Of a stretch of DNA of 64,000 bases, positions 14,517 to 56,313 are shown one piece after another (position 1 is the stretch's first letter; each line of letters begins with the position of its first letter). The position numbers and the translations under genes are program-made. The notes under the pieces were generated by a model. That model worked only from the letters and a program-made list of their open reading frames with translations, had not been told where the DNA came from and ran no database searches. This DNA is from a virus, in IMG/VR virus record IMGVR_UViG_3300037454_000906, positions 32,001 through 96,000 of that record; one strand, 5' to 3'.

Positions 14517-14803
14517 GGTTGTTAGCTGTTAATGAAAATGTTAATAAAATTTAACTAAACATACTTAAATATGCTAATGGAAATAATGTATATTTAGTTA
14601 TGCCTAGTTTGATATGCCGACCGTGTTAAGGCTCTTCAGTAATGAAGTAGGACTAGGCAAGTCAGCCGTGTTGCTTGATGCATATTAGGTATATCGCGTA
14701 GATACGGTTGATTAAGTGCCGTTACGGCCTACCCAGTGATGGGCAAGGTAGGAAATCACATAAGTCTATCTCTTGGTAGATTTAGGTAGGTTTCAGCTAA
14801 CGG
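14517..14803 (+). mobile_element. IS607-type mini-element copy 1 (no ORF; AT-rich left end plus omegaRNA-like scaffold)
   Basis: Near-identical to 39106..39393 and 56028..56313 (both inverted). Begins GGTTGTTAGC and ends TTTCAGCTAACGG. Shares CGACCGTGTTAAG, TGCCGTT(A/G)CG, TAGGAAATCAC and the end motif with the last ~190 nt of the tnpB element. Confidence 0.85.
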
Positions 14804-14820
14804 TGGAAAAATGAAAAATT

Positions 14821-14859
14821 AAAAAACGGAAAGGCCCCCGGTTGTTCACCGGGGGCCTT
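14821..14859 (-). terminator. Intrinsic terminator
   Basis: AAGGCCCCCGG-ttgttca-CCGGGGGCCTT hairpin followed on the minus strand by a T-rich tract. Confidence 0.7.
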
Positions 14860-14898
14860 GGATGTTTGGAGTATTATATGGATTTGATTGAGATTGTA

Positions 14899-15129
14899 CT
14901 AGGGGACCATCTTGGATCCGAATATTTTCCTGGACCACTTCCTGAACGTTTCGGGGGTGCAGGGGTTGAGCCAGTTGCCGCATTGTGCGTCGGAGATCTG
15001 TCCGTCCCTGTGGAGGGAGTCCTTGAACGCCGCCCAGGAGAGCTGCATTTCCCAGTAGTCGCCCCAGGGGGTGTCCTTGGACTCGACGAACATCTGGATG
15101 GCCTGTCGTTTGGTGAGGTACTTGCGCAT
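14899..15129 (-). CDS. Hypothetical protein
   Basis: 76 aa, AAGGAG RBS. Confidence 0.75.
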   Translation of the reverse strand: MRKYLTKRQAIQMFVESKDTPWGDYWEMQLSWAAFKDSLHRDGQISDAQCGNWLNPCTPETFRKWSRKIFGSKMVP

Positions 15130-15139
15130 GGTGTTCTCC

Positions 15140-15592
15140 TTACTGCGGCATGACGTGTACGCGGGTGTTGAACCCGAGGGCGGACTCCCCGAGCATCTTT
15201 GCGATGGATTTTCCCTTTTCGGTGAGGGAGAGGGCGAAGATTTCGCCTTGTTCCTCGGTGTCGATAGTCCACACGGGTTCGAGGGTGTCCTTGGTGTCCA
15301 TGTAGCCGATGCTGAGGAACACTCCGCGTTCCTGGGCGGCGTTCTTCACGTCCTCGATTGCGCCGTAGAACTTCTGGACAGCGGGGAGTTCGGCGGTCGG
15401 TATTCCCTTGGCCGGGGCCGCGCCGTCGAGGATGTCCTTGAGGTCGGCGCCGTCTTCGTAGAGGTGCCTGATGGCCTGGTGTGCGTCCTGGTAAGCCTTG
15501 TAGATTTCCGGGGTGACGAGTTTTCTCATGCCTTCGTGTCCGATTTCGGCGTGTCCGAAGTAGGAACCGTTGACTCTCGTGGCGTTTCTCAT
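15140..15592 (-). CDS. Hypothetical protein
   Basis: 150 aa, AAAGGAG RBS, motif upstream. Confidence 0.8.
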   Translation of the reverse strand: MRNATRVNGSYFGHAEIGHEGMRKLVTPEIYKAYQDAHQAIRHLYEDGADLKDILDGAAPAKGIPTAELPAVQKFYGAIEDVKNAAQERGVFLSIGYMDTKDTLEPVWTIDTEEQGEIFALSLTEKGKSIAKMLGESALGFNTRVHVMPQ

Positions 15593-15722
15593 GATTGGAT
15601 CTCCTTTTGATGCCTGTACGGCGTGTCCCCGGGGTCCACGGGGTACGGGGACCTCGGGACACGGCGGGGATGGCTAGAAGCCGACGGGGATTCCGATGGC
15701 TAGTTTTGCAAAAATGAAAAAT

Positions 15723-15905
15723 TTAAGAATCAAATTCCCGGCCCAGGCCACGGAAGTCCTTGTCCATGATATACGCGATTTCGTCGGTGTTGTGCCCGTC
15801 GCGGTAAAGTTCCTGCACCTTGCGGCGGTCCGCCTCGTCGAGGTAGAACCAACCGCGGGCGCGGCACTTCGCCGATACGGCTTCCCATACCTGCTCGAAG
15901 TCCAT
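15723..15905 (-). CDS. Small hypothetical protein (MDFEQVW...)
   Basis: 60 aa, follows the upstream gene. Confidence 0.6.
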   Translation of the reverse strand: MDFEQVWEAVSAKCRARGWFYLDEADRRKVQELYRDGHNTDEIAYIMDKDFRGLGREFDS

Positions 15906-15915
15906 AACTACCCCC

Positions 15916-16578
15916 TTACCCGTCGCCGTTGTCGCAGAGGTCCTCGGCGAGGGATTCATGCCCACGCTGATAGCGGTCCTGCGCACGGTCGAGCATTTTT
16001 ACGATATTTTCCTTGTCCGGTTCGTCGCAATCGGGGATAAGCGGCATGATTCCGGCCATCCACGAATCACCTGCACAGATGTGCACACCTGTCCTGCCGA
16101 GGCCCATGAGGCCGTAATCGGCGAGGCACCTGCCCCCGGTGCGGGTGCGTTCCACGGCCTTGATGCAGTCAAGGAGCGCAATCTCGCTGAAGGGGCTGAA
16201 AATGGCGCCCGTCTTGGGGAGCGGCACAAGGTTGTCGGTGGACGGGGAACCCTTGCTCGACGGGAGGATATGGCGGTAATTCGGGTAGCGGAAGCCATCG
16301 TCGTTGCGCGGGATGTCCTTGAAGAACATCAGGATGCCGTCGCCGCTCGGGTCTGCGAGGACCTTGCAGCGGTGTATGGTCGCCATGTTTTCCAAGCTGA
16401 TGCCCACGGAACCGTCATCGGTGAAGATGAAGATGATGTTCCCGTTGGTCGCCGTGAAGCGGCCCAGGCGCGGTTCGTAGAAAATCGGGTGAAGGTTCGG
16501 ACGGCTCTTGTCCGTAGAAACCACCTTCTTCATCTTGGAAAGGACGGTAGCGGTGTGTGCCATAGAAAATGTAGCCAT
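15916..16578 (-). CDS. Protein with DNA pol III beta-clamp N-terminal-like segment
   Basis: VSTDKSRPNLHPIF...FTATNGNII resembles the DnaN domain motif S-x-D-x-S-R-P-x-L...V-A-T-(D/N)-G; 220 aa, too short for a full clamp. Confidence 0.5.
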   Translation of the reverse strand: MATFSMAHTATVLSKMKKVVSTDKSRPNLHPIFYEPRLGRFTATNGNIIFIFTDDGSVGISLENMATIHRCKVLADPSGDGILMFFKDIPRNDDGFRYPNYRHILPSSKGSPSTDNLVPLPKTGAIFSPFSEIALLDCIKAVERTRTGGRCLADYGLMGLGRTGVHICAGDSWMAGIMPLIPDCDEPDKENIVKMLDRAQDRYQRGHESLAEDLCDNGDG

Positions 16579-16596
16579 GTTCGTGTCTCCTTTTGA

Positions 16597-17322
16597 TGCT
16601 CCCCGTATGTTACGGGGGTGGCGCCTGGGGAGGCGCCGTCCGTGATTCCTAGTCCTGCGGCTCGAAGGAAACTTCTTCCACGAAGCGGGAGTTGCCTTCC
16701 TTCGAGGTGAGGTCGAGGGCCTCGAACTTTTCGCGGGCTTCTTCCTCGTTGGCAGCGGTGATGTAGATTTCGCTGCGGTAGGTGATGCGGAATTTCTTGC
16801 CCCCTTCGGGTTCCTTCGGGGTTTCCGGCTTCTTCTTGGATGTCCTCGGGACGACAACATGGAGTTTGAGCATACCGCCACCTTCCATGTCGATTTCCAC
16901 TTCGTTGCCCTTCATGAGTTCGGCCTTGACGGTGTTCACGAGTTCGTCGAGGCCGAGCTTGCCATCTTCGGCGCGGTCATACATGTCGTTGCCTTCTTCG
17001 CCGATGCTGTCGAGGGAGCCTTCGTCGATATGGCCCGGGACAATCTTGTCGTCCTTGTCAACGGCTTCCTCGTATTTGAGGAACCCTTTGAGCGTTTCGA
17101 TACCGACATCGGCACATTCTTCCTGGGTGTCGCGGAGTTCCGGGTCGAGACGGTCGATCGCCGGGGTGAACTGGCCGGAATAGCAGATTTCGCCTACGAG
17201 GCAGAACTGGGTGGGCTTGGAATTGTTCTTCTTGGACTTTGCCATAAATCGTGTCTCCTTTTGATATGCAGGATATGTTACGGGGACGGCGCCTGGGGTG
17301 GCGCCTCCCGTGATTCCGCGTT
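16597..17322 (-). repeat. Two copies of a variant upstream element (TATGTTACGGGG..GGCGCCTGGGG.GGCGCC.CCGTGATTCC)
   Basis: Copies at ~16597-16650 and ~17263-17322 occupy the motif position before the 16578 and 17245 starts. Confidence 0.7.
16649..17245 (-). CDS. Acidic hypothetical protein
   Basis: 198 aa, AAAGGAG RBS. Confidence 0.8.
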   Translation of the reverse strand: MAKSKKNNSKPTQFCLVGEICYSGQFTPAIDRLDPELRDTQEECADVGIETLKGFLKYEEAVDKDDKIVPGHIDEGSLDSIGEEGNDMYDRAEDGKLGLDELVNTVKAELMKGNEVEIDMEGGGMLKLHVVVPRTSKKKPETPKEPEGGKKFRITYRSEIYITAANEEEAREKFEALDLTSKEGNSRFVEEVSFEPQD

Positions 17323-18055
17323 ACGCGGCCTTCTTCGCCCTTACATGGCAGATTTCGTTCATGGATCCGTATTGGGTCCCGTAGAACTTCCTCCCGTCGA
17401 GGATGAAGCCTACATCGGTCCTTGTCCCGGCGAGGTTGTGGCGCCCTTCCACCGCGTAGTCCACGGGGATTTTGAGGGTGCCGGGCCAGTTAGAAACAAA
17501 AAATTTTCCGTCCTTCTTCGTGAGATACAGATGATACTGTTCGCGCCCTTTGAGGCCCAACAGCGCCTTGCGGTCGCGGACGGCGCAACAGGCGTAGCAA
17601 ATCTTCGCCCCCTCGTATATGCCGCACCCGGTCCCGAAGGATTCGCGTTGCACGGGGAAAGGCTTGCCGCAGTCGGAGCATACGCCCGGTTCCTGGTGGA
17701 CGAAGCCCTTGTAGGCATCCCTCATGGACTTGTCCTGGTTTACCTTGACCTCGACGGTGTAGGTGTCGCCCTTGTATTCGAGCTTCCATTCGCCGAGGTA
17801 GTCGTCGGAGACCTGGCTCCCGGTGACCTCGGAAAGGTCGCCCTTTTCGTCGGGCTTCATGAGGATGGCCTCGGTCCAGGCGCCCTCGTCCTCGGATTCG
17901 GCCCCCACGCACTTGACATCCATCACCATGCCGTTCTCGAAGGTGGCGGAACGGATGATGCTTGCGCCCGGGTCGAGGCGTTCGGTGTTGTCGAGGGCGC
18001 GTTGGACGCGCTCGGCGGTTTCGGGGAAGAGTTCGATTGTGGCACGGTAGTTCAT
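17321..18055 (-). CDS. Two-domain hypothetical phage protein with Cys cluster
   Basis: Start after AAGGAG; CSDCG...GCG...ICYACCA segment. Confidence 0.8.
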   Translation of the reverse strand: MNYRATIELFPETAERVQRALDNTERLDPGASIIRSATFENGMVMDVKCVGAESEDEGAWTEAILMKPDEKGDLSEVTGSQVSDDYLGEWKLEYKGDTYTVEVKVNQDKSMRDAYKGFVHQEPGVCSDCGKPFPVQRESFGTGCGIYEGAKICYACCAVRDRKALLGLKGREQYHLYLTKKDGKFFVSNWPGTLKIPVDYAVEGRHNLAGTRTDVGFILDGRKFYGTQYGSMNEICHVRAKKAA

Positions 18056-18143
18056 GTTGGTGTCTCCTTGTCTGATAGCCCTACGGTGTGTCCCCGGTGT
18101 CCACCCGGCATGGGGACACTGGGACACGGCGGGAACCGGGATT

Positions 18144-18644
18144 TTAGATGCACATGAGCGTTCTTTCGACCTTGGCGATGTCCACTGCGGCCTTGGCGAC
18201 CATGAGCAGTCGTTCCGTGACGAGCGTGGGGACTGGGTTGTTGGTGAGGATGTCGCAGTCTCTTACGATGCCGGAATGAAGGACCTTGACAATGGCCTTA
18301 TGGGGTTCCACATGGGAGCCGACTCGGGAGATAGTCCACTTTATGCCATCCTTGGCCTGGGAGAACTTGACCATGATGATTACGGAGGCAGTGGCAAAGC
18401 GCTCCGTGACGATGATGTTGAACCCCGCGCCGTTGCATTTCCAAGTGGAGGGTTTACCCTTTCCGTGGTATTTGATTGTAATGTATTCGACCTCGATGTA
18501 CGCGTCGTGATTGTCCCCGGTGAAATTTTGCTGAATATAGCCTTTCCATTCATGCCGGAGGGATATGAGTGCTCCGATGTTTGGTTTCCTAATTAACATG
18601 AATGCCTCCTTTCGGCGGTTGCGGGGATTAATCTTCCTCGCCAT
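18144..18644 (-). CDS. Hypothetical protein
   Basis: ORF track; may start at MLIRKP (AAGGAGG RBS). Confidence 0.7.
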   Translation of the reverse strand: MARKINPRNRRKEAFMLIRKPNIGALISLRHEWKGYIQQNFTGDNHDAYIEVEYITIKYHGKGKPSTWKCNGAGFNIIVTERFATASVIIMVKFSQAKDGIKWTISRVGSHVEPHKAIVKVLHSGIVRDCDILTNNPVPTLVTERLLMVAKAAVDIAKVERTLMCI

Positions 18645-18786
18645 CGAGCCATTTGATCAGTTCATCGCGGCACTTGCCGCATATCTTCCTTTCCAACTTG
18701 AAGCCGAGGACATTGGTCATGATGACCGTGTTCATGGGGACATGTCCTTCGAATTTGCACCTGGAACACTTGTTCTTGTGCGGCAT
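18628..18786 (-). CDS. Small CxxC...CxxC protein (MPHKNKCSRC...CGKC...)
   Basis: 52 codons, hand-translated, below the ORF-track cutoff. Confidence 0.5.
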   Translation of the reverse strand: MPHKNKCSRCKFEGHVPMNTVIMTNVLGFKLERKICGKCRDELIKWLDGEED

Positions 18787-18887
18787 TAGTTCTTCTTCAG
18801 GGGGCATTTGTTTCTCCTTTTGATGTCCCTACGGTGTGCCGCCGGGGTCCACCGATCGCGGGGACACCCTGGCACGGTTGGGTATAG

Positions 18888-19012
18888 GGCACCGGGCGGG
18901 CTTCGAACCCGCAACTGTTGACCAGGTAGTCCTGGAACGGACCCCGTGCCTTACCGATGGGCACGGTGGTTATGGTCCCGCCTCTTTCCACGGATTTTTG
19001 GGCTACCGATGC
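18888..19012 (-). ncRNA. tRNA-like RNA with a hairpin inserted in the anticodon loop
   Basis: Acceptor GCATCGG/CCGGTGC; D arm GCC...GGC; anticodon stem GGACC/GGTCC enclosing a CCGTGCC/GGCACGG hairpin; variable arm CCAGG/CCTGG; T arm GCGGG-TTCGAAG-CCCGC; no encoded CCA. Confidence 0.65.
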
Positions 19013-19053
19013 CGATTTCAAAAAATATTTGGGTATGTCTACCCAAAGTGTTT

Positions 19054-19794
19054 CTAGTGGGGGATGTTTTCGTATTCGTCAGAAACCCAGATGGTCGTGG
19101 TGATGATACTGGTGAAACCGTGGCGCAACGCGATTTCATCCGGCATGGACTTTACTACCATTTCCCAGGTCACGGTCGACTTCTTTGCGGCGCTCTTGAA
19201 ACCAGGCTCGCCCGGCTGGATAGCCAAGTCGTTCATTCCCACGTCGGCAACGGCAGCGGCGAAATCTTCCGGGTTACTATCAATCCAGTCCTTGATTGCA
19301 CTCTTGACATTGTACTTAAAGATCTTTTCCGTGTTATGTACGGACTTGAACACAAAGACACGGACACCATCATCACCGTCACATTCCACCTTGTAGATGT
19401 ACGGAAAATTGGTTTCTACCGTCTCGTCAGCGAACTTCGGCAATACTACTTTCTTGGTCATGGTTTTCTTCTTGGGCTTGGATCCGTCATAGGTGACCGT
19501 TCCGTCCAACAGGTCGGCCAGTTCATCGGCATCCTTGCGGGAGGGGAGGTGGATTTTCAGGTAATTCTCCTCATAGTATTCATCCATGGAGTTGTCGATG
19601 ACCTTGATTTTGAACTCCGGGTCATTGGCGCCTTTGTCCATGTCGTATTCGGTATTGTCCTTTGCGGAATCGTCCGGGTAGATGTCGTGGAGGAACTTCT
19701 CGACAGTAGGTACATCGGTGCCATCGTATGCGGACACGTTGGCGAGAAATTCGGCGACATTGTTATATTCGTTCACGTGGGTGGAAATGCTCAT
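19054..19794 (-). CDS. Acidic hypothetical protein
   Basis: 246 aa, GGAG RBS. Confidence 0.8.
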   Translation of the reverse strand: MSISTHVNEYNNVAEFLANVSAYDGTDVPTVEKFLHDIYPDDSAKDNTEYDMDKGANDPEFKIKVIDNSMDEYYEENYLKIHLPSRKDADELADLLDGTVTYDGSKPKKKTMTKKVVLPKFADETVETNFPYIYKVECDGDDGVRVFVFKSVHNTEKIFKYNVKSAIKDWIDSNPEDFAAAVADVGMNDLAIQPGEPGFKSAAKKSTVTWEMVVKSMPDEIALRHGFTSIITTTIWVSDEYENIPH

Positions 19795-19822
19795 GGGTTT
19801 TTCTCCATTTCAAAAAAATTTT

Positions 19823-20275
19823 TTAGTAAAGGTAGAAGTTCACCTTGCGGGTGAGGCCCTCGGTTTCCGCGAGGTGCTTGTGGACCTTGAAGGACTGGGT
19901 TTTATGCTGTTCCCAGTATTCCTCGCCCTTCTTGGTGAGAATGAGAACATCGAGGGACAGGGTGCCGTCATGGTGGTGATCCGCCACATGGAGGCCGTCC
20001 TTGTCGATGTAGATGTCTTGGGCATAGGATGACCTGCCGATGAATTTGAGGAAGTCATCTACGGAGTTGACCTCGATGACCTTGCCAGCGGCACCGGACG
20101 GCTGATAATCAGGGTAGCGGCTGTTGTAGTGACCGAAGAACAGGCAGGTCTTTCCCATGAGGGGACTGTGTTCCATGTTGCTCTTGAAGTCCTCGTATTC
20201 CAGGGTGTCGGAGGGGATGTAGGTGACCTTCGGTGTCGCCTGGAAGTCGATTCTTAATTCTTTCGTGTCTGCCAT
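19823..20275 (-). CDS. Hypothetical protein
   Basis: 150 aa, AAGGAG RBS, motif upstream. Confidence 0.8.
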   Translation of the reverse strand: MADTKELRIDFQATPKVTYIPSDTLEYEDFKSNMEHSPLMGKTCLFFGHYNSRYPDYQPSGAAGKVIEVNSVDDFLKFIGRSSYAQDIYIDKDGLHVADHHHDGTLSLDVLILTKKGEEYWEQHKTQSFKVHKHLAETEGLTRKVNFYLY

Positions 20276-20359
20276 GATGTTGTCTCCTTGTTTCCTTGTT
20301 GTCCCTACGGTGTGTCCCCGGGGTCCACCCGGGATGGGGACATCGGGACACGGCGGGGA

Positions 20360-20710
20360 CTACAAGTCCAAATCCTCGAACTCGAAGTCGGTTTGGTCAC
20401 CATTCGGCTTGGTGACATAGATGTTCATGATATGGTCCCAATAATGGGGCTTCAAATGCTCCATGAACATCATCAGCTTGGTCGGGTCATCGGTGCTTGG
20501 GTCATACGTGAGTTCGTTTAACCCAGGAACCGTGGATTCGCCCTCGTAGATGTAAGTACGCAGAGTAATCTTGCAGGGGGCAAGTTCCTCGCACCGCATG
20601 GTGATGTACTCACACATATCGTCAATGATTTCGTAGCTGGGTGAACGGCACGGGCCATCATACATAACCGTTTCGCCATTTTCACGCAGAATGTAAAGGT
20701 CACAAGCCAT
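20360..20710 (-). CDS. Hypothetical protein
   Basis: 116 aa, GAGG RBS. Confidence 0.75.
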   Translation of the reverse strand: MACDLYILRENGETVMYDGPCRSPSYEIIDDMCEYITMRCEELAPCKITLRTYIYEGESTVPGLNELTYDPSTDDPTKLMMFMEHLKPHYWDHIMNIYVTKPNGDQTDFEFEDLDL

Positions 20711-20721
20711 ATTTTACCTCA

Positions 20722-21135
20722 TTACCCGTAGGTAGGTTCTCCAAAGATGATGCAGTCGATGAAGTTCAGCGCGGAGCACATGTCGGCATTGCCTTTGAGG
20801 TAGTCGGCGAACGCATTGTATTCCTTGGCGTGGTCGATAAGGGCTTGGAGACCCTTCTCGAAGTCGGCCAGGGTGACATCGTGGTCCTTGCCGTCCGGGT
20901 CGGTGACAAGGATGGTCATGCCGCGTTCGAGCATCCCTGCGAAGATGTCCTCGATGCACGGGCCGAACTGGTCATCCTTGGGCCAGGTTTCTTTGAGTGC
21001 CTTCTTCACCTGGTCGTACTCGCCTTCGTTCTTCTCGTTGATGGCGTAGCCTGTCCCGGTGAACATGTCGGAAATGAGATAGGACAGCTTGTAGTCGCTC
21101 AGCTCGAGGAACTTCTTGAAAGTGATTGTTGCCAT
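20722..21135 (-). CDS. Hypothetical protein (MATITFKK...)
   Basis: Start after AAGGAG; motif upstream. Confidence 0.8.
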   Translation of the reverse strand: MATITFKKFLELSDYKLSYLISDMFTGTGYAINEKNEGEYDQVKKALKETWPKDDQFGPCIEDIFAGMLERGMTILVTDPDGKDHDVTLADFEKGLQALIDHAKEYNAFADYLKGNADMCSALNFIDCIIFGEPTYG

Positions 21136-21243
21136 GTTGTCTCCTTGTTTCTTGTTGCCAGCACGTTGTATCGCCGGGGGCCACCGGATCCGGGCCATCG
21201 GATACACGGTGGGCTAAAGGCGCCCGGATGAAAAAAACACGAC

Positions 21244-21275
21244 AAAAAGGGGGCGCCTGGAAACCAGGCGCCCCC
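21244..21275 (-). terminator. Intrinsic terminator
   Basis: GGGGGCGCCTGG-aaa-CCAGGCGCCCCC followed by TTTTT on the minus strand. Confidence 0.8.
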
Positions 21276-21292
21276 GTGGAGACAACAAAATG

Positions 21293-21643
21293 TTAGGAAA
21301 TTTTCTTTACGATGCCTTCGGCAATCTTGACCAGGGGCTTCATTGCGACAATCTTCGAGAGCGCATTCGCGACCGCCTGTTCCGGTGTGTCGCCTATGCC
21401 GAAGCACTGGTTGGTGCATCCGGTCATCCCCGCGTAGTCGATTACCCCGATGGCCTTCTCCGTGGAGTAGGTGAGCGCGAACGGGGCAATCACCTCCTTG
21501 TTGAACCAGTGCCGCCCCATTTCGTCTTTTAGGGCATTGTGCGCCTCCTTCCCTTGATACCACGCGATCTCGCGGATGAACTCGCCGTCGGCGAGGGAGC
21601 AGAGGTCCAGTTTCGGTTTCTTCTTGGGCATTGTAAACTCCAA
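21293..21643 (-). CDS. Hypothetical protein
   Basis: 116-aa ORF. Confidence 0.7.
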   Translation of the reverse strand: MEFTMPKKKPKLDLCSLADGEFIREIAWYQGKEAHNALKDEMGRHWFNKEVIAPFALTYSTEKAIGVIDYAGMTGCTNQCFGIGDTPEQAVANALSKIVAMKPLVKIAEGIVKKIS

Positions 21644-21893
21644 AAGTAAAATTTTAGTAACGATACTCGACCCGAGGGGACTCGCCGGAAAACATTATTT
21701 TCCGCTGTCGCACCGCACACCTGTGGTCCGCATCGACTCGACATACATTGATGGTCGCCCGGTCGGTCAATCGGCTGAATATCTCTGTCTCGGGGTGGCA
21801 TACCCCAAAGCCGATTTAATCGCCACCAAGAATTGATGCCACAATGTCCTGGTTGTATGTCTATATCGTTACGTCAATATGGCAATTTTAAAA

Positions 21894-22518: not shown

Positions 22519-22527
22519 TTTTAAAAT

Positions 22528-23758: not shown

Positions 23759-23767
23759 TTAGGTCTC

Positions 23768-25964: not shown

Positions 25965-25988
25965 GGGTTTCTCCTTGAAATCAAAAAA

Positions 25989-38805: not shown

Positions 38806-39105
38806 CTAGTCCTCCTCGCTAACTCGCTTGTTACGTGGTTTCTTGCGCTTGTCAGGCACCTTCCGTGTGCGGAGCTTGCGCCCGTTCTCGGTCTCGGATA
38901 TGCGGATGGCGCGCTGCCCCTTGCTTTCTTTCCCGTCAACCGAAATTGAAATTGTGATTGTCATGTTCTTCATCGCTGACTCCTTGTTTCCGAACGCACC
39001 CACGATGTGCCGCCGGGGTCCACCGCCCGCGCATCCAGCGGCACACGGTGGCACCGGGGCGAAATTGAAAGAAAAAGTAAACTTTCGTTTACCCTTTCTT
39101 CCCTA

Positions 39106-39393
39106 CCGTTAACTGAAACCTACCTAAATCTACCACTAGGACAGACCTACGTGATTTCCTGCCTTGCCCATTGCTGAGTAGGCCGTAACGGCACTTAATC
39201 AACCGCATCTACGCGATATACCTAATATGCATCAAGCAACACGGCTGACTTGCCTAGTCCTACTCCATTACTGAAGAGCCTTAACACGGTCGGCATATCA
39301 AACTAGGCATTGTTAAATATACATTATTTCCATTAGCATATTTAAGTATATTTAGTTAAATGTTGTTAACATTTTCGTTAACTGCTAACAACC
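39106..39393 (-). mobile_element. IS607-type mini-element copy 2
   Basis: Inverted, slightly diverged copy of 14517..14803; flanks TG|GG...GG|T. Confidence 0.85.
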
Positions 39394-42900: not shown

Positions 42901-43452
42901 CTATTTGCACTTCGCCTTGATTTCTGTGCGGTTGTCAAGGAACCACTTGATGTCTTCCACCAAATTTTCAGCGGTCTCTTCCACTGAATTGGCGTTGGCG
43001 CCCACTGCAAGCAACTTCTTTACTTGGTCAAGTGAGTCAGCATGTTCCTTGCGCTTTTGGGCGATAAAGGCGTAACACTTGGCAAGGCTATCCTTTCCTG
43101 CCTCTCCAAAGAACTTGGCAAAATGCATGCCCACATACACTTCCACCTCGTAGTTGTTTTGGTTTAAAACGCAGTGGCCCGTTTTCAGCAATTGGTCCAT
43201 GTGGACACTTGCATTAAAGATTTCGGGGCCGTAGCAATGGAGCAGGCAACGTTGATAATCCTCCTTGCCAATGGTCTGAATGCCGAGTTCGTGGCGATAG
43301 GAATAGCTGGACTTCTTAGAAAGGACGAAATAGAGCTTGTCCGATTCTACGCGGGCATAGTCTTTCACTTCTACTTTGTCGGAATTTACATCAACATTGC
43401 CAACGATTTCAAATGCGTAGCGGTTGGTGTAGCGAATAATGGTTGTAGCCAT
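42901..43452 (-). CDS. Hypothetical protein (MATTIIRY...)
   Basis: Start after AAAGGAG; motif upstream. Confidence 0.75.
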   Translation of the reverse strand: MATTIIRYTNRYAFEIVGNVDVNSDKVEVKDYARVESDKLYFVLSKKSSYSYRHELGIQTIGKEDYQRCLLHCYGPEIFNASVHMDQLLKTGHCVLNQNNYEVEVYVGMHFAKFFGEAGKDSLAKCYAFIAQKRKEHADSLDQVKKLLAVGANANSVEETAENLVEDIKWFLDNRTEIKAKCK

Positions 43453-43739
43453 AATGGACTCCTTTTGTTGAACATGTCCACGATGTTCCACCGGATCCCA
43501 CCGCACATGGGACACCTGGAACATGGTGGGGGCGCAGTCAATAAAAAATGAAATCCCGAATGTCCTCATGGGTGTTAAGCCCCCCACCGCGCCGATTGGA
43601 CATTCGGGATAAAGGTTAAATTCTCAGAACCGAACGGCAGACATGCACCATGTCCCCGAAGATAACGTCACGCCAACGACAACCCACGCAGAACACGCCT
43701 TTAACGATGGACGGGGCTGGCTTGGTCGGCACACGCTTG

Positions 43740-48331: not shown

Positions 48332-48458
48332 ATGGCTCCTTTTCTGAACGTGCCCACGGTGCGCCGCCGGACCCCACCGGATCCGGTTCACGGGGAACAC
48401 GGTTGGCGCGGTTCCCCAGAGGCGAAAAGTTTGGTGCCCATGTGGGCACCTAGTTCAC

Positions 48459-48665: not shown

Positions 48666-48688
48666 AGCGTACCACTTTAAAAAATTTT

Positions 48689-48874
48689 TTACATGCCGCT
48701 CTCAATGGCCATGGAAAAGTCAACGCAGTCCTTGCAGCCGTGATACCTGCTCAGCGCGGCCTCGGTCTGCTCGGGACCCATCTCATCAAAATATTTCAGA
48801 AGACGCCCGTAGAACCCCTGAGCACGGGAAAGGGCCCTTATCCACCCGAGTATGGTCTTGGTCTTTTCGCTCAT
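48689..48874 (-). CDS. Small protein, paralog of 36673..36873
   Basis: Shared motifs with 36673..36873; AAAGGAG RBS; motif upstream. Confidence 0.7.
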   Translation of the reverse strand: MSEKTKTILGWIRALSRAQGFYGRLLKYFDEMGPEQTEAALSRYHGCKDCVDFSMAIESGM

Positions 48875-49396
48875 GTTGAAACTCCTTTTCTGAACACGCC
48901 CACGGTGCACCGCCGGACCCCACCGGATCCGCTACGCCGGGCACACGGTGGCGCCGCACGCGTCACGATACAGGAACGGGCGGTTCCCGAGGGGTATCGG
49001 GAACCGCCCGTCATTGCTTGGCTCGGGCTTCGGATGCCAGTTTCGCCCTGCGGTCGCCTATTCATATCGTCGTAAGTTGGACATCCCGACCCGACGACCT
49101 TGCCACATATCCGCTACTTGCCCACGGGGCGCACCACGCACGGGAATCCCGCTGCGCTGCGCTTGGCAGCGTTCCTGTCCGCAACCGACTTCTTGTAGTG
49201 GGAAGAGAAAAGGTTGAGACCGGCAGTGGTGACCGAGTAAACGCCATACTTTTTCATTTTGTAACCTCCGTTGTTTGAACATGCCCACGTTGCGCCCCCG
49301 GACCCAACCGCCCGCGGGACATCCCGGACACGGTGGGGCGCGCCGTGTCCCTTGAAGCATGGTGCCCATATGGGCACCCCGTCTCCCCCCGTGCAA

Positions 49397-49780
49397 TTAC
49401 TTCTTCATTTCGTCCCCCCTGCTGAGCTCGTTTAGCACGAGCGTGTTCATGTCCGTCTCGGGCGCCTCCAAGAGCGAGAGGACCCTGTGCAGAGTGTGGT
49501 TCGGCATGTAGCCGAATTCGAATGCACGCTTTGAGCCGTCTTTGTCATCGCACACGATTACGGGATTCATGTCGGCTCCAGCGGCCACATGGGTTATCGT
49601 GAACTTCAGGGGAGGCATATATCCCTTGATGCTGAACTTGACGGGTTTCGGGAGAGGCACCAGCTTTTTACGCTGATCGGCCTCGCTGCATTCGGGGAAC
49701 ATTGCCCCCGCCTTCGCCATGATGCTCTTGTAGAGGTGCTCCCTGTACATTACCGCAGTGAATACGCCCATAGATGCCAT
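49397..49780 (-). CDS. Hypothetical protein
   Basis: Start after AAAGGAG; motif upstream. Confidence 0.7.
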   Translation of the reverse strand: MASMGVFTAVMYREHLYKSIMAKAGAMFPECSEADQRKKLVPLPKPVKFSIKGYMPPLKFTITHVAAGADMNPVIVCDDKDGSKRAFEFGYMPNHTLHRVLSLLEAPETDMNTLVLNELSRGDEMKK

Positions 49781-50791
49781 GATGTAACTCCTTTTGATGA
49801 ACATGCCCACGATGCGACGCCAGGTCCCACCAAGGGCGGGACTGTGGTCACATGGTGGCCCCCAAGCAAAACACTGACCCGCAGGAGGCCGTAGGGCTAT
49901 CGCATACCAAATCCGGTGCCCCCATGTAGCATTCCGCCTCCATGCTTAACTCGTCCTCCATGAGGTCCGTGTCAAGTTCGCATCGTGCATCTAGTTCGGT
50001 AACCATGCGTGCCTCCTCGGGTTGAACGGGCCCACGCTGTGCCGCCGGACCCCACCGACCGCGGGACACCGGACGCACGGCGGGTGCAAGTTCCTGGGGA
50101 CCGAAAGGCCGTATAGGGAACATGGGGCACAATTGAGCACCATGGTAGCGTCCTCGGTTCCCCCGGTGTCCCCAGGGTCCCGCGGGGTGACCCCCGCGCC
50201 CACGGTGTCCCACCGGCGGGCGCGCCCGCCGGGACGCGAGGGGGACATGGCCGGGAAAAAATCAAAATCAAAACCTGGGGGTCACATTTTGGAAAATGGC
50301 GATCTCCGCTTTGCCCCGATTTCAAAAAATTTACCCGGTAGGGGGGTACGGGGGTTTCCGGCGGCCCTTTGTAAACATTTGTAAACATTTTCCGGGGGTA
50401 ACTGGCCCCAAAAAATCAAAAACTTTTTTAACCCGGTACCGGGTACCCTAAGTTTGAATGAATGATGTCTAATTAACGAAAAAAAATTTTTGGGGGGTGG
50501 GGGTCTGCATATTTTTATGAATAATATAAGCTGTATTATAGATACAGTGGGGGTTATCAACAGCTAACCTAAAATCTACCTAAATTTACTCAATTTTACC
50601 GAAATCGGCAAGTATTTTAGTGCATTTTAGGTTGAAAATCGACATAAAATTTTGTACATTGTTATAAACTTGATATATAACGGTTCGATGAATTAGTCGT
50701 GTTCTTCGTCGAGCTATAGTGGAAACCATTTCGATGGCTCGTTTGGAATTGAACACGACAATAAGTTCCTTACGAGCCATTTCTGTATTGT

Positions 50792-52528
50792 ATGAGCAAG
50801 CATTGTTGGACATTGAAGGATCGGTATGAGTCGCAGTTCTCCGCTGCGTTCTATCCTATTCTATTGTCCGACACCAAGCGTGCCGAAATTACCCATCGTG
50901 CGGGGGAAATCCGTTCCGTAAGGAACGACATATCGGAAGTGTTCTTCTCGGATATGCTCGGCTTCCAGGATATGAGCAAGTTCGAGGCCTTTAACTTTTT
51001 CAATCCGACATTCAATACACGCCTATCTGGCCACTACTTGAAGAAGGCTATCGAGGATGTCTGGAAGGCATACCAATTACGGTTCGATGCGATCCGCAGG
51101 AAGATTGAGTTCGTCAAGGTTGAAGAGCTGGTTCCATCCTTTTACAAGATAAACACCCATGGGCATAGGAAAGGCGACCTTAAATCTATTGAAGTTCATA
51201 CCAAGAAGACAGAACTTACCAAAGTGCTGACTTGGCTTGCTCGATACGGCAAGAATGAAACCGTCTATTGGCTTGAATCCGTTATTCCTACCGTAGTAGA
51301 ATCCAAGCAGAAGTTCTATCGAGCTATACTTGATAAGATACGCAAATTTGGGTTTGACCGCCTCATGCGGTTGGCGCGGTCAAGAAGAACATCTGTATTT
51401 GCCGAATACGAGAAGCGTGGCAAGATTACCTTTGAATCGCTTACATTCTCTGGCCGTAGTCGTATCAAGCGTCCTATCGTGGATGCTCGCAGGAACGAGA
51501 CTGGTAAGTTCGATTACTTCATCGAGATTTCCTGGGATTGGAATGACCAAGGCTACCGTGGTGACAGCAAGAACACGCTATGCATGCCGTTCAAGTATAA
51601 CAAGGCATACCACCGTTCGTTGAACCGCTACTGCAACGGAACCGATACATCCTATACGATGGTAGTCCGAGGAAAGGACATCCATGTAGTTCTCGCAAGG
51701 GACGGCTACCGCTATAAGAATACTGACGAGATTACCGAAGAAAATACCGTCGGAATAGATGTCAATTCCAAGCACAACATGTTCGCATTGAGTACCGGTG
51801 AGTTCATCCCGAACGACGATGCCTTGATTGCCGACCTTGAAACCGAGTTGCTCAAGATAGACCGGAAGCAGAAGAACTACAACGTCAAATTCAAGGAAGA
51901 CGAAGAGCATGAAGCGTTCAAGATATCCAAGAAGGACAAGGCTCGCATCGAAGCTATTACATTGAAGCTGAACGAGTCCAACAAGCGAGCTATCGTACTG
52001 CTTTGCCAAGCATTTGCCGCTAAAGGAATCAAGCACATCGCAATGGAGAACCTCGATGGTTTCCAAGGCAGAAGGCTCCATGCTGATGACTCAAAAGGAT
52101 TTAATCTAGGAAGGTTGCATCTAAGGACTGGACTATCCTCGTTGAAGGACGAGTTCATCCATATTGCACCGCATTACGGACTGTCGGTTTCACTTGTGCA
52201 ACCCGAATACACTTCCAAGATGTGCGGTGAGTGCGGTTGCATCGACGACCGGAACCGCCAGACACAAGAAGAATTTTGCTGTGTTGAATGCCATCATGCG
52301 GAAAACGCGGATATTCATTCAGCCAAGAATATTAAAGTCCGTCTTACCTCGACCGTGTTAAGAGGGAACTTGCTCGAAAGGGCAGGGGATAGCGGATATA
52401 GGTACTTCCAGCCAAAGAGCTTGTTCAGGTGGCAAGTAAGGAAGTGCCTAGAAAAATGCCGTTGCGATGGTCTTCTCAAACGGACCATAGGAAATCACGA
52501 AAACCTTACTGTGAGTAGGTTTGAGTAG
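50792..52528 (+). CDS. tnpB: TnpB RNA-guided RuvC endonuclease (large, 578 aa)
   Basis: RuvC-I VGIDVN, RuvC-II IAMENL, V.PEYTSK.C..C...C..C Zn finger, RuvC-III NADIHSAKNI; all catalytic residues present. Confidence 0.92.
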   Translation: MSKHCWTLKDRYESQFSAAFYPILLSDTKRAEITHRAGEIRSVRNDISEVFFSDMLGFQDMSKFEAFNFFNPTFNTRLSGHYLKKAIEDVWKAYQLRFDAIRRKIEFVKVEELVPSFYKINTHGHRKGDLKSIEVHTKKTELTKVLTWLARYGKNETVYWLESVIPTVVESKQKFYRAILDKIRKFGFDRLMRLARSRRTSVFAEYEKRGKITFESLTFSGRSRIKRPIVDARRNETGKFDYFIEISWDWNDQGYRGDSKNTLCMPFKYNKAYHRSLNRYCNGTDTSYTMVVRGKDIHVVLARDGYRYKNTDEITEENTVGIDVNSKHNMFALSTGEFIPNDDALIADLETELLKIDRKQKNYNVKFKEDEEHEAFKISKKDKARIEAITLKLNESNKRAIVLLCQAFAAKGIKHIAMENLDGFQGRRLHADDSKGFNLGRLHLRTGLSSLKDEFIHIAPHYGLSVSLVQPEYTSKMCGECGCIDDRNRQTQEEFCCVECHHAENADIHSAKNIKVRLTSTVLRGNLLERAGDSGYRYFQPKSLFRWQVRKCLEKCRCDGLLKRTIGNHENLTVSRFE

Positions 52529-52542
52529 ATTTCAGTCAACGG
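52350..52542 (+). ncRNA. Predicted omegaRNA (reRNA) scaffold of the tnpB element
   Basis: Overlaps the tnpB 3' end and right end, as is typical for TnpB systems; homologous blocks are conserved in the three mini-elements. Confidence 0.6.
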
Positions 52543-52668
52543 TAGCATGCATGTCGTCGGGCACGGTAATCATGTCCCGGAGGAACTTGCACAGTTCAGG
52601 GAAAGTTGTCGGCATGCGCTTGACTAAGTCGGATAACACCGGATTGTATATTTTATCCATATGACGCC

Positions 52669-53169
52669 TCATATGCACTTGACGATTGTACCGTTGTATG
52701 TTCCCAGTTCCATCATGTCCCTGATGGCGGCTTCCCTGGTGTCGGCAAACGATATAACGTACCGTTCGTCGAGGTCGTAAACATCGTAGCCTTTGTTGGT
52801 TTTCCGGATGGCGAACCTGGCGGACTGGATGGAATAGCACGGCTTTCCGGTTTCGGTGAACAGGTCGGCCTCACGGAAAGGTTCCTGGAGCCAGTCGAGC
52901 AGGGCTTTGGCACCGACCATGGCGTCATAGAATGTCTTGAACCTGGCGAAAGCGAGGAACACGAACTGGCTCCGGTGTAATCCGTCGCCCCTGGACCTGG
53001 GGATGGCGGGGTTGTCATCCCTGAGAGCCAGCGAGAAGTACCCGTTGTGCCTGTCGACCACCTTGATTTTAGTGTGCTTGGGGGACCATAGGCGCCAGTT
53101 CTTGTTGGCGTAAAATGGTCGTTGTGAGTCGTGTTTTGCAATGATGTGCTCAATTACGCCGCTCATCAT
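52669..53169 (-). CDS. Hypothetical protein
   Basis: 166 aa, coupled to the upstream gene. Confidence 0.7.
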   Translation of the reverse strand: MMSGVIEHIIAKHDSQRPFYANKNWRLWSPKHTKIKVVDRHNGYFSLALRDDNPAIPRSRGDGLHRSQFVFLAFARFKTFYDAMVGAKALLDWLQEPFREADLFTETGKPCYSIQSARFAIRKTNKGYDVYDLDERYVISFADTREAAIRDMMELGTYNGTIVKCI

Positions 53170-53969
53170 AGTTTGCCCCCGTTGATATTCTTCAAGGCGT
53201 ATTCCGGCCGGTTGAATTCCGCACGGGAAAGCATCTTGTTGAACCGTGTCAGTTCCCTGGTGATGTAGGACTTCATGTTCTTCATGTTGCTCTTCAGTGG
53301 GCCCCTATACGTGTTGGACATGGATACCTGGAAGTTGTGGACGTACACGACGGTAGACAGCGACTCGGAATGCTTGAAACCGAACGTGCCGTCCTTCTTG
53401 ATGGTCGGTTCACCGGTTACCCAGAGATCCATGTATCCTTCCCCCGTGATGTTGAGCCGCATCCCAACACTCTTGTGGTCATCGGTGAAGATGGTACTGA
53501 TACGGTAGTCGCGTTTCGTATCTTGTTCAGATAAAGTGGCGAAGTCCTTAGAGACACATTCGGTGGCCGCCTTGTAGATGAGCTGCAGGATCCAGATCTG
53601 CCATGCAGGGGGCGTGATTGCGGTGTCGGGAGCGGTGAACACCGGGTTCATGTCAGCCATGAACAGGGTGAAGTGCAGGTTGTGGAATGCGTTAAGGAGG
53701 TTCACATCCCACGGTAAGTTCTTCATCTTAAAAACGGCGCGATCCCGGAGGGGCATGCAGTATTTGTATGCCTCGAACGTGGACATGATGGGGGTCATCG
53801 AACCGTTGGCCATGTAGTTGACCAGGTAAGTCGTTGTGCGGGCAGATGCACTGGCGGGGAGGTCACTGTCAGGTTCGAACATTGTGCCCACGTCATCATC
53901 AGACGGGTGCCACTCACCATCCAGGTCACCCCTGGTCCAGTTCAAACGATTTTCTTCGATAAAGTCCAT
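53166..53969 (-). CDS. Hypothetical protein
   Basis: 267 aa, GGAGG RBS. Confidence 0.8.
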   Translation of the reverse strand: MDFIEENRLNWTRGDLDGEWHPSDDDVGTMFEPDSDLPASASARTTTYLVNYMANGSMTPIMSTFEAYKYCMPLRDRAVFKMKNLPWDVNLLNAFHNLHFTLFMADMNPVFTAPDTAITPPAWQIWILQLIYKAATECVSKDFATLSEQDTKRDYRISTIFTDDHKSVGMRLNITGEGYMDLWVTGEPTIKKDGTFGFKHSESLSTVVYVHNFQVSMSNTYRGPLKSNMKNMKSYITRELTRFNKMLSRAEFNRPEYALKNINGGKL

Positions 53970-53970
53970 G

Positions 53971-54270
53971 TTATTCCTCCGTGCACTCGATTGTTTCCGG
54001 GTATGGGTAGTTTTCCATGGCGCCGCTTCCGCTATGATGTCCGGGGCGCGGGTGATGGTAGGAGAAGTTATTGCCTATCTTGCACCTGAGCTTCTTCGCC
54101 GGCACCTGTGTCTCGATGCAGACGGCATCGAGGGTTCTCCCCCTGTGATAGAATGCAGAGAGGATTTTTGACTTTGCGGCCTCGCACTGCTGCAATGTTG
54201 GGAATTTGAGGTCGGCGTTGGCCGAGTAGCCGTTGATGGAAAATACGAGAATGAATATTGCTTTTACCAT
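53971..54270 (-). CDS. Small secreted or membrane-anchored Cys protein
   Basis: Hydrophobic N-terminus, four Cys; AAGGA RBS. Confidence 0.7.
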   Translation of the reverse strand: MVKAIFILVFSINGYSANADLKFPTLQQCEAAKSKILSAFYHRGRTLDAVCIETQVPAKKLRCKIGNNFSYHHPRPGHHSGSGAMENYPYPETIECTEE

Positions 54271-54274
54271 TTTG

Positions 54275-55420
54275 TTATCCTTCGTACCAGGGTTTGAGAA
54301 CTTCCATTTTCATTTCGCTAAAACGGGGTGAAGCGTTGCGGAATCCCAGATCGTATGTCTTGTCCACGCGCTTTTGGATCATGTCCTTGGCGATGCGTTC
54401 GGCTTCTTCCGGGGTAGTTGCACTGACCTTGACATGCACGTTGGCCACGACCGGGACTGTGAAGCGGTAGTTCACAACAGGATCCGGACGTTCGAACTTG
54501 GAGATGTCTACAAGGTAATCGTCAATCTGGCGCACTTTCGCACGTTCAGGCTTCTTGCTCCATGATTCCATGCTCTTGTACTCTTCCTCAAATTCCATGC
54601 TCTTGTACTCTTCCTCAATCCAGTCCTTTACCACTCCGCGCCCGTATTCGGCCAGTTCGTCATAGGACATCCCGAATAGCTTCTTCGGCACTTCGAGTGT
54701 ACAGGGGCCGTGATGAAAGGGCCATTCGACATCTACCTTGATATAGTCGGAATCTTCTGGGGTACCGAACAGGTAAAACCCGGTAAACACGATGTCATCC
54801 TCGTGATTCCACCTTCCACCGTGGAGAGTATTGAGACGAAGGCGGGACACGACGACGATTGGCCAAATAACCTTATTGGCAAGAGCTTGGTATTCATGTC
54901 GCAGATTGTGGACCTTTTTGTCCTTGAAATCATCTAAATCCTTACCCTCGTACGGCTTGATTGCATCGTTGAACTTGGCGAGGATATCTTTGAGCTTCGC
55001 ATACAATGTGGCGTAGTCGGGAAATTCCTTGCGGTTTTCCTCGATTTGCGTGCGCAACTTTTCCACTTCGGCGCGATAGGAAATCTGTACTCCCTCGATG
55101 GCCTTCAGGATTGGCTTACGGAGATACGGGCTGTACACGCCCTTGGCGCAGCCGCGCTTGTTAGAGCTCGGGGAATACTCCCTGGTTGTCAGCATGGCAT
55201 ACGGGATACGGCAGTCTGGATTATATTCCGGGCCATCGAACCTGACATACCACTTGTCCATGGATAGCCAAGCAATCTGGATTCCATACCAGGTGACGGT
55301 ACCCGTATCCGCATCGCATAGACCAAATTCGTTTACCGAAATTCCGGGGATGTCCCCGATGGTTTCCCTGGCGGTCTTTATCGCCTGTTTTACAATAGGA
55401 TTGTTGCTCTCTGTACTCAT
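54275..55420 (-). CDS. Hypothetical protein (MSTESNN...)
   Basis: Start after AAGGA; ~381 aa; sigma70-type promoter upstream. Confidence 0.8.
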   Translation of the reverse strand: MSTESNNPIVKQAIKTARETIGDIPGISVNEFGLCDADTGTVTWYGIQIAWLSMDKWYVRFDGPEYNPDCRIPYAMLTTREYSPSSNKRGCAKGVYSPYLRKPILKAIEGVQISYRAEVEKLRTQIEENRKEFPDYATLYAKLKDILAKFNDAIKPYEGKDLDDFKDKKVHNLRHEYQALANKVIWPIVVVSRLRLNTLHGGRWNHEDDIVFTGFYLFGTPEDSDYIKVDVEWPFHHGPCTLEVPKKLFGMSYDELAEYGRGVVKDWIEEEYKSMEFEEEYKSMESWSKKPERAKVRQIDDYLVDISKFERPDPVVNYRFTVPVVANVHVKVSATTPEEAERIAKDMIQKRVDKTYDLGFRNASPRFSEMKMEVLKPWYEG

Positions 55421-55438
55421 ATTAGTTTCCTTGTACAA

Positions 55439-55467
55439 AATGTAGCAAAAAGGGCCCGGTTTGACAA
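55439..55467 (-). promoter_or_regulatory. Sigma70-type promoter with extended -10
   Basis: TTGTCA-N17-TACATT with TG immediately upstream (TGC-TACATT). Confidence 0.7.
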
Positions 55468-55475
55468 CCGGACCC
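55447..55475 (-). terminator. Intrinsic terminator at the trailer end of the CRISPR array
   Basis: GGGTCCGGTT-GTCA-AACCGGGCCC-TTTTT; overlaps the -35 box of the next promoter. Confidence 0.7.
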
Positions 55476-55514
55476 ATGTGTCAAGATTTGTTGACATGCT
55501 ACGACTAACATTCT

Positions 55515-55991
55515 GTCGTCCCCGGGCTTCAAACTACGCCCGGTTCGAGCAAGATTCTGGAACGCAACGGCTGCTGTCCTCGGGTTTCAAACTACGCCCG
55601 GTTCGAGCTTCAGACCTAAAAATGCCCATTTTAGGGTGCTGTCTCCGGGCTTCAAACTACGCCCGGTTCGAGCAGTCGGAAAAATACATGTACAAACTGC
55701 CTGGCTGTCTCCAAGTTTCAAACTACACCCGGTTCGAGCGCCTCTTAAAATACCCCAGCTGTCCCCGGGTTTCAAACTACACCCGGTTCGAGCTTAACTG
55801 ACAGAACATCTTCTGTCCAGCCTGCTGTCCCTGGGTTTCAAACTACACCCGGTTCGAGCTAACAACGATGTAATAGGTGTCACTTGGGGGCTGTCCCTGG
55901 GTTTCAGACTACACCCGGTTCGAGCGAACTTTTACGGCCTTCTCGCTTTGATGATGCTGTCCCTGGGTTTCAGACTACACCCGGTTCGAGC
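55515..55991 (-). CRISPR. CRISPR array: 8 repeats (36 nt) and 7 spacers
   Basis: Repeat on + strand GCTGTCCCCGGGTTTCAAACTACACCCGGTTCGAGC at 55515, 55573, 55638, 55704, 55758, 55824, 55890, 55956; spacers of 22, 29, 30, 18, 30, 30, 30 nt. The degenerate repeat and terminator on the left imply minus-strand transcription (GCTCGAACCGGGTGTAGTTTGAAACCCGGGGACAGC, with CCGGGT/ACCCGG stem). Confidence 0.97.
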
Positions 55992-56027
55992 ACATTTTGC
56001 ATAAGTCCCCGTTGGCCAAATAGTTAA

Positions 56028-56313
56028 CCGTTAACTGAAACCTACCTAAATCTACCAAGAGATAGACTTATGTGATTTCCTACCTTGCCCATCACTGGGT
56101 AGGCCGTAACGGCACTTAATCAACCGTATCTACGCGATATACCTAATATGCATCAAGCAACACGGCTGACTTGCCTAGTCCTACTCCATTACTGAAGAGC
56201 CTTAACACGGTCGGCATATCAAACTAGGCATTATTAAATATACATTATTTCCATTGCATATTTAAGTATGTTTAGTTAAATTTTATTAACATTTTCATTA
56301 ACAGCTAACAACC
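56028..56313 (-). mobile_element. IS607-type mini-element copy 3, in the CRISPR leader
   Basis: Near-identical to copy 1; lies 32 bp after the cas stop and 36 bp before the first repeat, co-oriented with both. Confidence 0.88.

Follow-up and report, generated by a model that had tools for sequence, protein, structure and literature searches.

Among the closest described systems to the elements that we present here is CboIStron of Clostridium botulinum, in which the target of the transposase TnpA and the transposon-adjacent motif (TAM) of the RNA-guided nuclease TnpB are both TGGG, the guide RNA (omegaRNA) ends in UCGG, and the base at position -3 separates an empty site from self (10.1101/2023.11.20.567912). 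A laboratory 'mini-IS' without both genes was excised by TnpA acting in trans (Zedaveinyte et al., 10.1101/2023.11.20.567912). Here we describe natural elements of comparable design from a stretch of 64,000 nucleotides of phage DNA (the window; bases 32001-96000 of the 253,117-bp virus record IMGVR_UViG_3300037454_000906, genome label G000, completeness rated 99%), in which three protein-less mini-transposons of about 287 bp, hereafter minis, are found together with a unit that encodes a 578-aa TnpB. We think it likely that the minis keep the transposon ends and the guide RNA of this TnpB, and that they are mobile IS607 guide-only elements whose RNA is used in trans.

The family resembles CboIStron in having a GG core at both ends and in the target, in a G-rich motif (TGGG there, nGGG here) that is both insertion site and presumed TAM, in a right end that differs from this motif at position -3 only (TCGG there, ACGG here), and in an omegaRNA that ends at the right-end GG and takes its guide from the 3' flank, the position being a predicted one in our case. 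It differs in the lack of a group I intron, in its long TnpB (578 aa) and in an invariant T at +1, and the minis, moreover, are natural, protein-less and multi-copy elements of a phage genome.

Protein-less elements have also been described in the IS200/IS605 family, where elements resembling palindrome-associated transposable elements (PATEs) often encode omegaRNAs that require use in trans (Meers et al., PMC10055086). The minis share with them the lack of genes, the retention of transposon ends and omegaRNA, and a TnpB encoded elsewhere; PATEs, however, use a Y1 tyrosine transposase, single-stranded intermediates and hairpin ends, whereas the minis have IS607 ends and a serine-recombinase partner. 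The minis would work like PATEs, but they are not members of the PATE family. ISFba1 (Ren et al., PMC11061315) is similar in its IS607 TnpB, its structured 3'-side guide RNA and its G-rich TAM, but its TAMs are AGGAG or GAGGG, its TnpB has around 390 aa and its guide RNA (right-end RNA, reRNA) is RAGATH-18-derived; the scaffold found here matched neither RAGATH-18 nor any other Rfam family at gathering thresholds, and permissive scans of Rfam gave chance-level matches only. At the level of biology, a review of OMEGA systems (for obligate mobile element-guided activity) discusses transposon homing into co-infecting phages under the term 'transposon non-restorative homing' (PMC13565253, 2026). 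In the marker exclusion exerted by the homing endonucleases of T-even phages the proposed benefit is the same, namely that the allele lacking the element is cut in a co-infecting genome and repair copies the element into it, with the difference that here an RNA guide would provide the recognition and would be carried by an element separate from the nuclease gene. Our literature search returned no account of natural guide-only minis of the IS607 type from phages.

Anatomy of the minis and the fold of their RNA

The features on which the argument rests are listed below, with positions counted from the first base of the window.

14517..14803, plus strand: mini copy 1, 287 bp from GG core to GG core; antisense to the adjacent minus-strand genes
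14607..14803, plus strand: omegaRNA scaffold of copy 1, by covariance-model match
14804..14823, plus strand: predicted guide of copy 1, taken from the 3' flank and beginning with T, placed by the known layout of IS607 TnpB
39106..39393, minus strand: mini copy 2, 288 bp; its left end provides the final codons and the stop codon of a 39-aa open reading frame (ORF)
39106-39303, minus strand: omegaRNA scaffold of copy 2, by covariance-model match
39086-39105, minus strand: predicted guide of copy 2, the 3' flank, placed by the same layout
56028..56313, minus strand: mini copy 3, 286 bp; separated by 32 nt from the stop of the preceding 894-aa gene and by 36 nt from the first repeat of the CRISPR array that follows
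56028-56224, minus strand: omegaRNA scaffold of copy 3, by covariance-model match
56008-56027, minus strand: predicted guide of copy 3, the 3' flank, placed by the same layout
50552..52542, plus strand: non-autonomous tnpB unit, 1991 bp from GG to GG, in which a left end bearing a structured leader is followed by tnpB and then by the omegaRNA/right end
50792..52528, plus strand: tnpB, 578 aa, with a Cas12f1-like TNB domain
52339..52542, plus strand: omegaRNA scaffold of the tnpB unit, overlapping the final ~63 tnpB codons and terminating in ...CAACGG

An initial annotation, made from the letters of the window, had reported three near-identical copies at these coordinates and on these strands, each bounded by GG and devoid of ORFs, and all of this is borne out. 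When the three copies are aligned over their whole length, identity ends sharply at GGGTTG on the left and at AACGGT on the right; a search of the entire 253-kb genome returns exactly three copies (identity 100, 98 and 93%), which are 93-98% identical to one another with GG...GG boundaries; a repeat finder recovers them as long pairs (families D12, D15 and I1-I3); and inspection of all three revealed no ORF of note. The GG at both boundaries recurs in all minis and tnpB units, and the 3' flanks that the annotation gave as guides were correctly read.

Each mini consists of a left end of ~95 nt followed by a right-hand omegaRNA scaffold of ~197 nt, with a GG crossover dinucleotide at either end. 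The right-hand ~197 nt and the 3' end of the tnpB unit have the blocks CGACCGTGTTAAG, TGCCGTT, AGGAAATCAC and TTTCAGnnAACGGT in common and in the same order. Because these 3' blocks are shared and the ends have the same form, a mini corresponds to a tnpB unit that has lost its whole interior, from about nt 95 of the left end up to the last ~197 nt, and the minis are thus internal-deletion derivatives of an IS607-type tnpB element.

The RNA encoded by this right-hand part folds more stably than shuffled controls, with z = -4.8 for the mini and z = -3.7 for the tnpB 3' end. Sixteen distinct tnpB 3' ends yield a consensus of 61 covarying pairs in nine helices; 98.1% of cells are paired, against 37-45% with slid partners, and 64 cells carry double changes against 24.6 in shuffles, a figure of 64 being reached in none of 500. 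Nine minis placed on the corresponding architecture are 99.1% paired, with double changes at five pairs, and in a larger set of 30 distinct minis from related phages and metagenomes 97.9% of cells are paired (27-43% with slid partners), with double changes at 11 pairs and in 44 cells, where 4.7 and 12.4 were expected (0/500 shuffles). The stem that closes the 3' domain illustrates the pattern: in tnpB units CCGUUGC is paired with the terminal G-CAACGG, in minis the partners are CCGUUAC and G-UAACGG, and in one mini A-U has taken the place of a G-C pair. Conserved structure supported by covariation, which the annotation had proposed as a check, is therefore present in tnpB 3' ends and in the protein-less minis alike, and the fold of the mini RNA is under selection.

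It is on this evidence that the view of the minis as inert relics has to be judged, according to which they still transpose by their TnpA-binding ends, their RNA is unused by any TnpB and their similarity reflects recent spread. The copies are indeed very alike, with a mean column identity of 94% over 30 mini sequences, and no promoter was detected in the window copies that were scanned; set against this are compensatory changes, spread over seven helices of protein-less copies and far in excess of shuffled and slid controls, a scaffold whose conservation equals or exceeds that of the left end (95.9% versus 93.3%), and the invariance of the loops common to the tnpB family (CGACCGUGUUAAG and GGAAAUCAC). 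We consider the relic explanation unlikely.

Homology between the two scaffolds was addressed with a covariance model (R1) of 204 positions, which was built from the 16 tnpB 3' ends alone and included no minis. It matched the three minis over positions 1-204 of 204, with scores of 66.8-67.9 bits and E ~1e-18, and over the 253-kb genome it gave no match beyond tnpB's own scaffold and the three minis, the 3' ends of the other TnpB-like genes included.

IS607 ends, autonomous relatives and empty sites

The hallmarks of IS607 elements are GG at the ends and in the target, a preference for (G)GG, the lack of target duplication and of inverted repeats, and short direct subterminal repeats that bind TnpA (Chen et al. 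2018). The ends of the minis are not inverted copies of each other and are not accompanied by a target-site duplication, and candidate subterminal repeats are seen on the right, GGTAGATTT and GGTAGGTTT, 11 nt apart from start to start, and on the left, CTAAACATAC and TTAAATATGC. The family is linked to a transposase by two autonomous loci (L060 and L064), where a 91%-identical tnpB is immediately preceded by tnpA_S and the left end is homologous: like that of the mini, it starts with GGGTTAYCAACTGTAAA and includes AAAATTTAACTAAAT.

The initial annotation had noted that tnpA is lacking from the window and had suggested a search of the full genome, and searches for resolvase and Y1 transposases did match outside the window only. 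At ~148.8-149.5 kb the genome encodes a serine TnpA that scores 182 bits on NF033518 (cut-off 110) and has HTH_17/MerR_1 followed by Resolvase, and at 186.5 kb an IS200-type Y1 TnpA. The serine TnpA sits in a sister 4.4-kb IS607 whose ends are built on the same plan as those of the minis (a slash marks the junction here and below): the left reads CTGGG/AAGTCAACTGTAAAC, and the right comprises AAGAAATCAC, two GTAGAAAT repeats and TATCGG/A. Its left end and the start of its tnpA are homologous to those of L060 and L064. Neither the ends of the second IS607-like element of a related phage (G002) nor the sequences flanking the solo-looking TnpA gave a simple match to GGGTT...AACGGT; the resemblance to the ends of the 4.4-kb element is evident only on closer reading.

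Given the autonomous tnpA_S-tnpB relatives and an IS607 TnpA in the same genome, the IS607-type assignment of the annotation holds, and the comparison of ends and genes supports the minis as non-autonomous derivatives of the IS607 family. Its label of miniature inverted-repeat transposable element (MITE) suits them less well, the strict marks of that class (terminal inverted repeats and a target-site duplication) being absent, and mini-transposon is the safer name. The Y1 TnpA at 186.5 kb does invite the idea that the minis are PATEs of the IS200/IS605 type moved by that enzyme, but GG stands at both ends, empty sites hold a single GGGT, the autonomous relatives carry a serine TnpA and not Y1, and no matching subterminal hairpins exist between the two ends, all of which makes this idea extremely improbable.

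Insertion at the GG core can be read from three occupied/empty pairs, two concerning minis and one a tnpB unit; the empty-site alleles that the annotation had proposed to look for do therefore exist for members of the family. The first pair involves a mini at a gene end in phage G001, ...CGT TTC GGG / element / TAA, of which the empty orthologue in G000 reads ...CGG TTT GGG TAA, and both proteins end in GIGGRFG and a stop. In this mini (L013:1500-1510) the left end is GGGTAG instead of GGGTTG, and the stop codon is recreated exactly where the insertion split the host's GGG TAA. In the second pair, the mini of L113 and the empty alleles of L106 and L100 have near-identical flanks, and in silico removal of 273 bp (the element and one GG) restores the frame, the protein then ending ...FQGNGWREAPNK and a stop where those of the empty alleles end ...FQGIGWREAPKQKK and a stop. 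The third is the tnpB unit of L065, which interrupts an ORF at GCA G/GG/ TCA that is continuous in G002. Removal of the element with one GG restores the host reading frame in two of the pairs, and the empty alleles hold a single GGGT or a synonymous variant of it. The three pairs show the target to be G-GG-T, with one GG shared and nothing duplicated. A comparison of L100 with L106 ('pair B') as a further occupied/empty pair was dropped for want of a clean alignment.

Every tnpB unit reads N/GGGT...AACGGT/N with variable outer bases, and the minis are alike in this. At each of the 27 independent insertion sites a T follows the right-end CGG, and the base before GGG, counted at 25 independent sites, is T in 9, C in 9, G in 5 and A in 2. 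The TG[GG]T target that the annotation proposed for the minis is accordingly right for the three window copies, each of which has T before GGG, but not for the family, where this base varies and the target is N-G-GG-T; its GG[GG]T for the tnpB element agrees with the G seen before GGG at that unit. In these three empty alleles GGG is absent (CGGTT, CCGGTA) or the flank is unlike the guide, which may be the state left by homing pressure and, with three cases, could be chance.

A probable TnpB partner and a proposed guide-only cycle

The tnpB unit recurs, with sharp boundaries and 79-86% DNA identity, in phages where alignment is otherwise confined to patches of 63-75%, and the positions that it occupies are not syntenic. 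Its 578-aa product matches the TNB and guided_TnpB models, and the RuvC residues D323, E419 and D507 and the zinc-ribbon cysteines C478/C481/C497/C500 (CxxC...CxxC) are invariant in 15 homologues of 30-59% identity; sequence alignment to solved Cas12f and TnpB structures covers the C-terminal part of the protein only. By its catalytic and zinc-ribbon residues the nuclease is intact. Metagenomic homologues fall into more than 120 clusters at >=81% identity, many of them on contigs of 100-450 kb, and at least 150 more distant homologues were recorded as well. A search with a 4-sequence TnpB alignment gave one genome locus (L119), the sole match in a prokaryotic genome, a TnpB of 71% identity on a 23-kb contig of a Clostridia metagenome-assembled genome from water-buffalo caecum, which is a weak hint at host or habitat; the omegaRNA closing stem of this locus carries a G-C to A-U swap, and its right end reads ...TTGG/T.

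Several further observations concern TnpB genes and their surroundings. The leader before tnpB (window 50690-50790) can be drawn as nested stems, GTCGTGTTC...GAACACGAC and ATGGCTCGT...ACGAGCCAT, with compensatory changes visible by eye when four related units are aligned. At L078:1-999 two tnpB 3' ends stand in tandem, the right end of one unit being followed by a 5'-truncated tnpB and a second right end, which indicates that one unit inserted within the tnpB gene of another. Outside the window, at genome ~27.9-29.9 kb (L005), a 426-aa TnpB-like protein with HTH_OrfB_IS605, OrfB_IS605 and TNB domains precedes a run of at least eight exact 36-nt repeats with spacers of ~30 nt, which we read as a miniature type V-like CRISPR locus.

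The initial annotation had suggested that a different TnpB might be the partner of the minis; this would be an unsampled TnpB with a mini-type 3' end. The explanation draws on the fact that the mini and tnpB scaffolds are two distinct sequence lineages, scoring 67 bits and 227 bits on model R1, respectively. Against it, none of 36 metagenome and five IMG/VR mini loci has a tnpB ORF attached to it; the other TnpB-like genes of the genome have unrelated 3' ends that the model does not match; and the minis co-occur with the 578-aa TnpB in G000, G002, G003 and G004, that is, in every large record with minis. We judge a different partner to be improbable. The end-to-end match of the minis to a model of the local TnpB's omegaRNA, together with this co-occurrence, goes against the earlier suggestion, and the 578-aa TnpB is favoured as the best candidate partner.

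In the cycle that we propose, which takes transcription, trimming, loading in trans, cutting and repair copying from published IS607 and IS605 work, a serine TnpA acting in trans would excise a mini as a circle and insert it at G-GG-T without duplication. This TnpA could come from the sister 4.4-kb IS607 in the same phage or be the cognate TnpA of autonomous relatives. Transcription of the mini would probably be mostly by read-through from an upstream gene, after which TnpB would trim the transcript to an RNA made up of the scaffold and ~16-20 nt of 3' flank acting as guide, and the 578-aa TnpB from the tnpB unit would load this RNA in trans. The complex would then cut where a GGG motif adjoins the flank sequence, which is the form of an allele that lacks the insertion in a sister genome or a co-infecting one, and recombinational repair would copy the mini into the cut genome. 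The sequence logic for sparing self lies in the left junction, nGGG, as against the right end, ACGG: an occupied site reads CGG at the position in question and would be left alone.

Several of our results weigh against this cycle or parts of it. The mini and tnpB scaffolds diverge considerably, with the native tnpB scaffold at 227 bits and the mini at 67 bits on model R1, so that loading by the 578-aa TnpB is a proposal only, and part of the conservation of the right end could reflect TnpA binding instead of RNA function. The TnpA of G000 shares only 55-57% identity with its counterparts in L060 and L064, and its 4.4-kb element has ends that depart in detail from those of the minis. A simple scan detected no sigma-70-like promoter in or near copies 1 and 2, and copy 1 runs antisense to neighbouring genes. 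Exact scans and comparisons with related records found no empty alleles of the window's own three sites. An internal sigma-70 promoter had been entertained, longer mini variants showing TTGAAA-N17-TATRTT by eye, and was rejected, the window copies being without it and the scan negative.

Spread, insertion context and significance

The minis belong to a family that is widespread and occurs in large phages. A mini-specific 20- to 24-mer was found in 5 IMG/VR records and 36 metagenome stretches, and searching GenBank phage DNA with the mini gave no match. Mini lengths cluster at 287 nt, with variants of ~276 and ~298 nt. The minis have moved: they are 85-99% identical across phages that can otherwise be aligned only patchily, at 63-75%, and their positions are not conserved between related phages. 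When the flanks of the three window copies were compared with five related records, the mini itself was the only match, and in a translated comparison of flanks between G000 and G002 most mini sites lay in regions without any homology.

As for where they settle, a same-strand terminator-like hairpin follows within 80 nt of the right end at 14 of 28 sites, as against 181 of 2000 random windows (9%; binomial p ~3e-8), and several left junctions fall within the final codons of a gene. In the window, copies 2 and 3 are co-oriented with their neighbours; copy 1 is antisense, and the terminator adjacent to it is on the opposite strand. Near copy 3 two further features are relevant:

55514..55991, minus strand: CRISPR array with 8 repeats of 36 nt, directly downstream of copy 3; the array was verified
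56346..59030, minus strand: 894-aa gene upstream of copy 3

Copy 3 has the same orientation as both, and its location in the leader between the 894-aa gene and the array means that its predicted guide is leader sequence. The 894-aa gene has no Pfam or PHROG match, and used as a synteny anchor in IMG/VR it brought up no relatives.

This placement might suggest that the phage has co-opted the minis, so that instead of promoting their own spread they would be movable RNA modules for 3' ends or regulation, or would give TnpB additional guides for use against rival phages, since half of the sites precede a same-strand terminator, several insertions replace gene 3' ends and one mini stands in a CRISPR leader. 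The same pattern, however, is expected from survival at harmless, transcribed sites, and the inconstant positions between related phages speak against co-option too, which leaves it in our estimation highly improbable. Terminator-proximal placement at gene ends fits the survival of insertions at harmless co-transcribed sites.

Two side observations belong with the insertion context. The minis of L092 and L115, which have variant or shortened left ends, follow closely on tRNA-like 3' ends (GGTTCGAGTCC...). A repeat of 70-95 nt (families D1-D10) occurs in more than 40 copies between window positions 3400 and 50100 (e.g. 43448-43540), immediately upstream of minus-strand genes, each copy being made up of an A/T run, a GC-rich bulged hairpin and then CAACAAAAGGAG-N6-ATG.

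A wider reading of the minis as guide-only elements is possible, although we hold it to be doubtful: the mini-type scaffold would be a long-lived guide-only lineage without a coding parent, outnumbering the nuclease gene by ~3:1 per near-complete genome and kept by selection, with each copy serving as an added guide of the phage's single TnpB against relatives that lack the insertion. This would amount to RNA-guided marker exclusion between jumbo phages in co-infection, in which copy 3 might drive or police the inheritance of the CRISPR locus.

The general concept being already in the literature, the value of the minis is that of a worked example and not of a new principle, and we regard them as a natural and well-supported instance of a type of selfish element already known in outline. 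They offer a natural system for a question that has mostly been addressed with engineered constructs, namely whether TnpB can be re-armed in trans by protein-less transposon guides and so drive their spread. A single phage genome provides one intact nuclease and three natural candidates for guides in trans, and the family as a whole sets autonomous, nuclease-only and guide-only forms side by side, with real occupied and empty alleles and an uncatalogued, strongly covarying scaffold of ~200 nt. For the phages themselves, it means that IS607 elements and their derivatives shuttle among very divergent jumbo phages, with a preference for gene 3' ends just before terminators.

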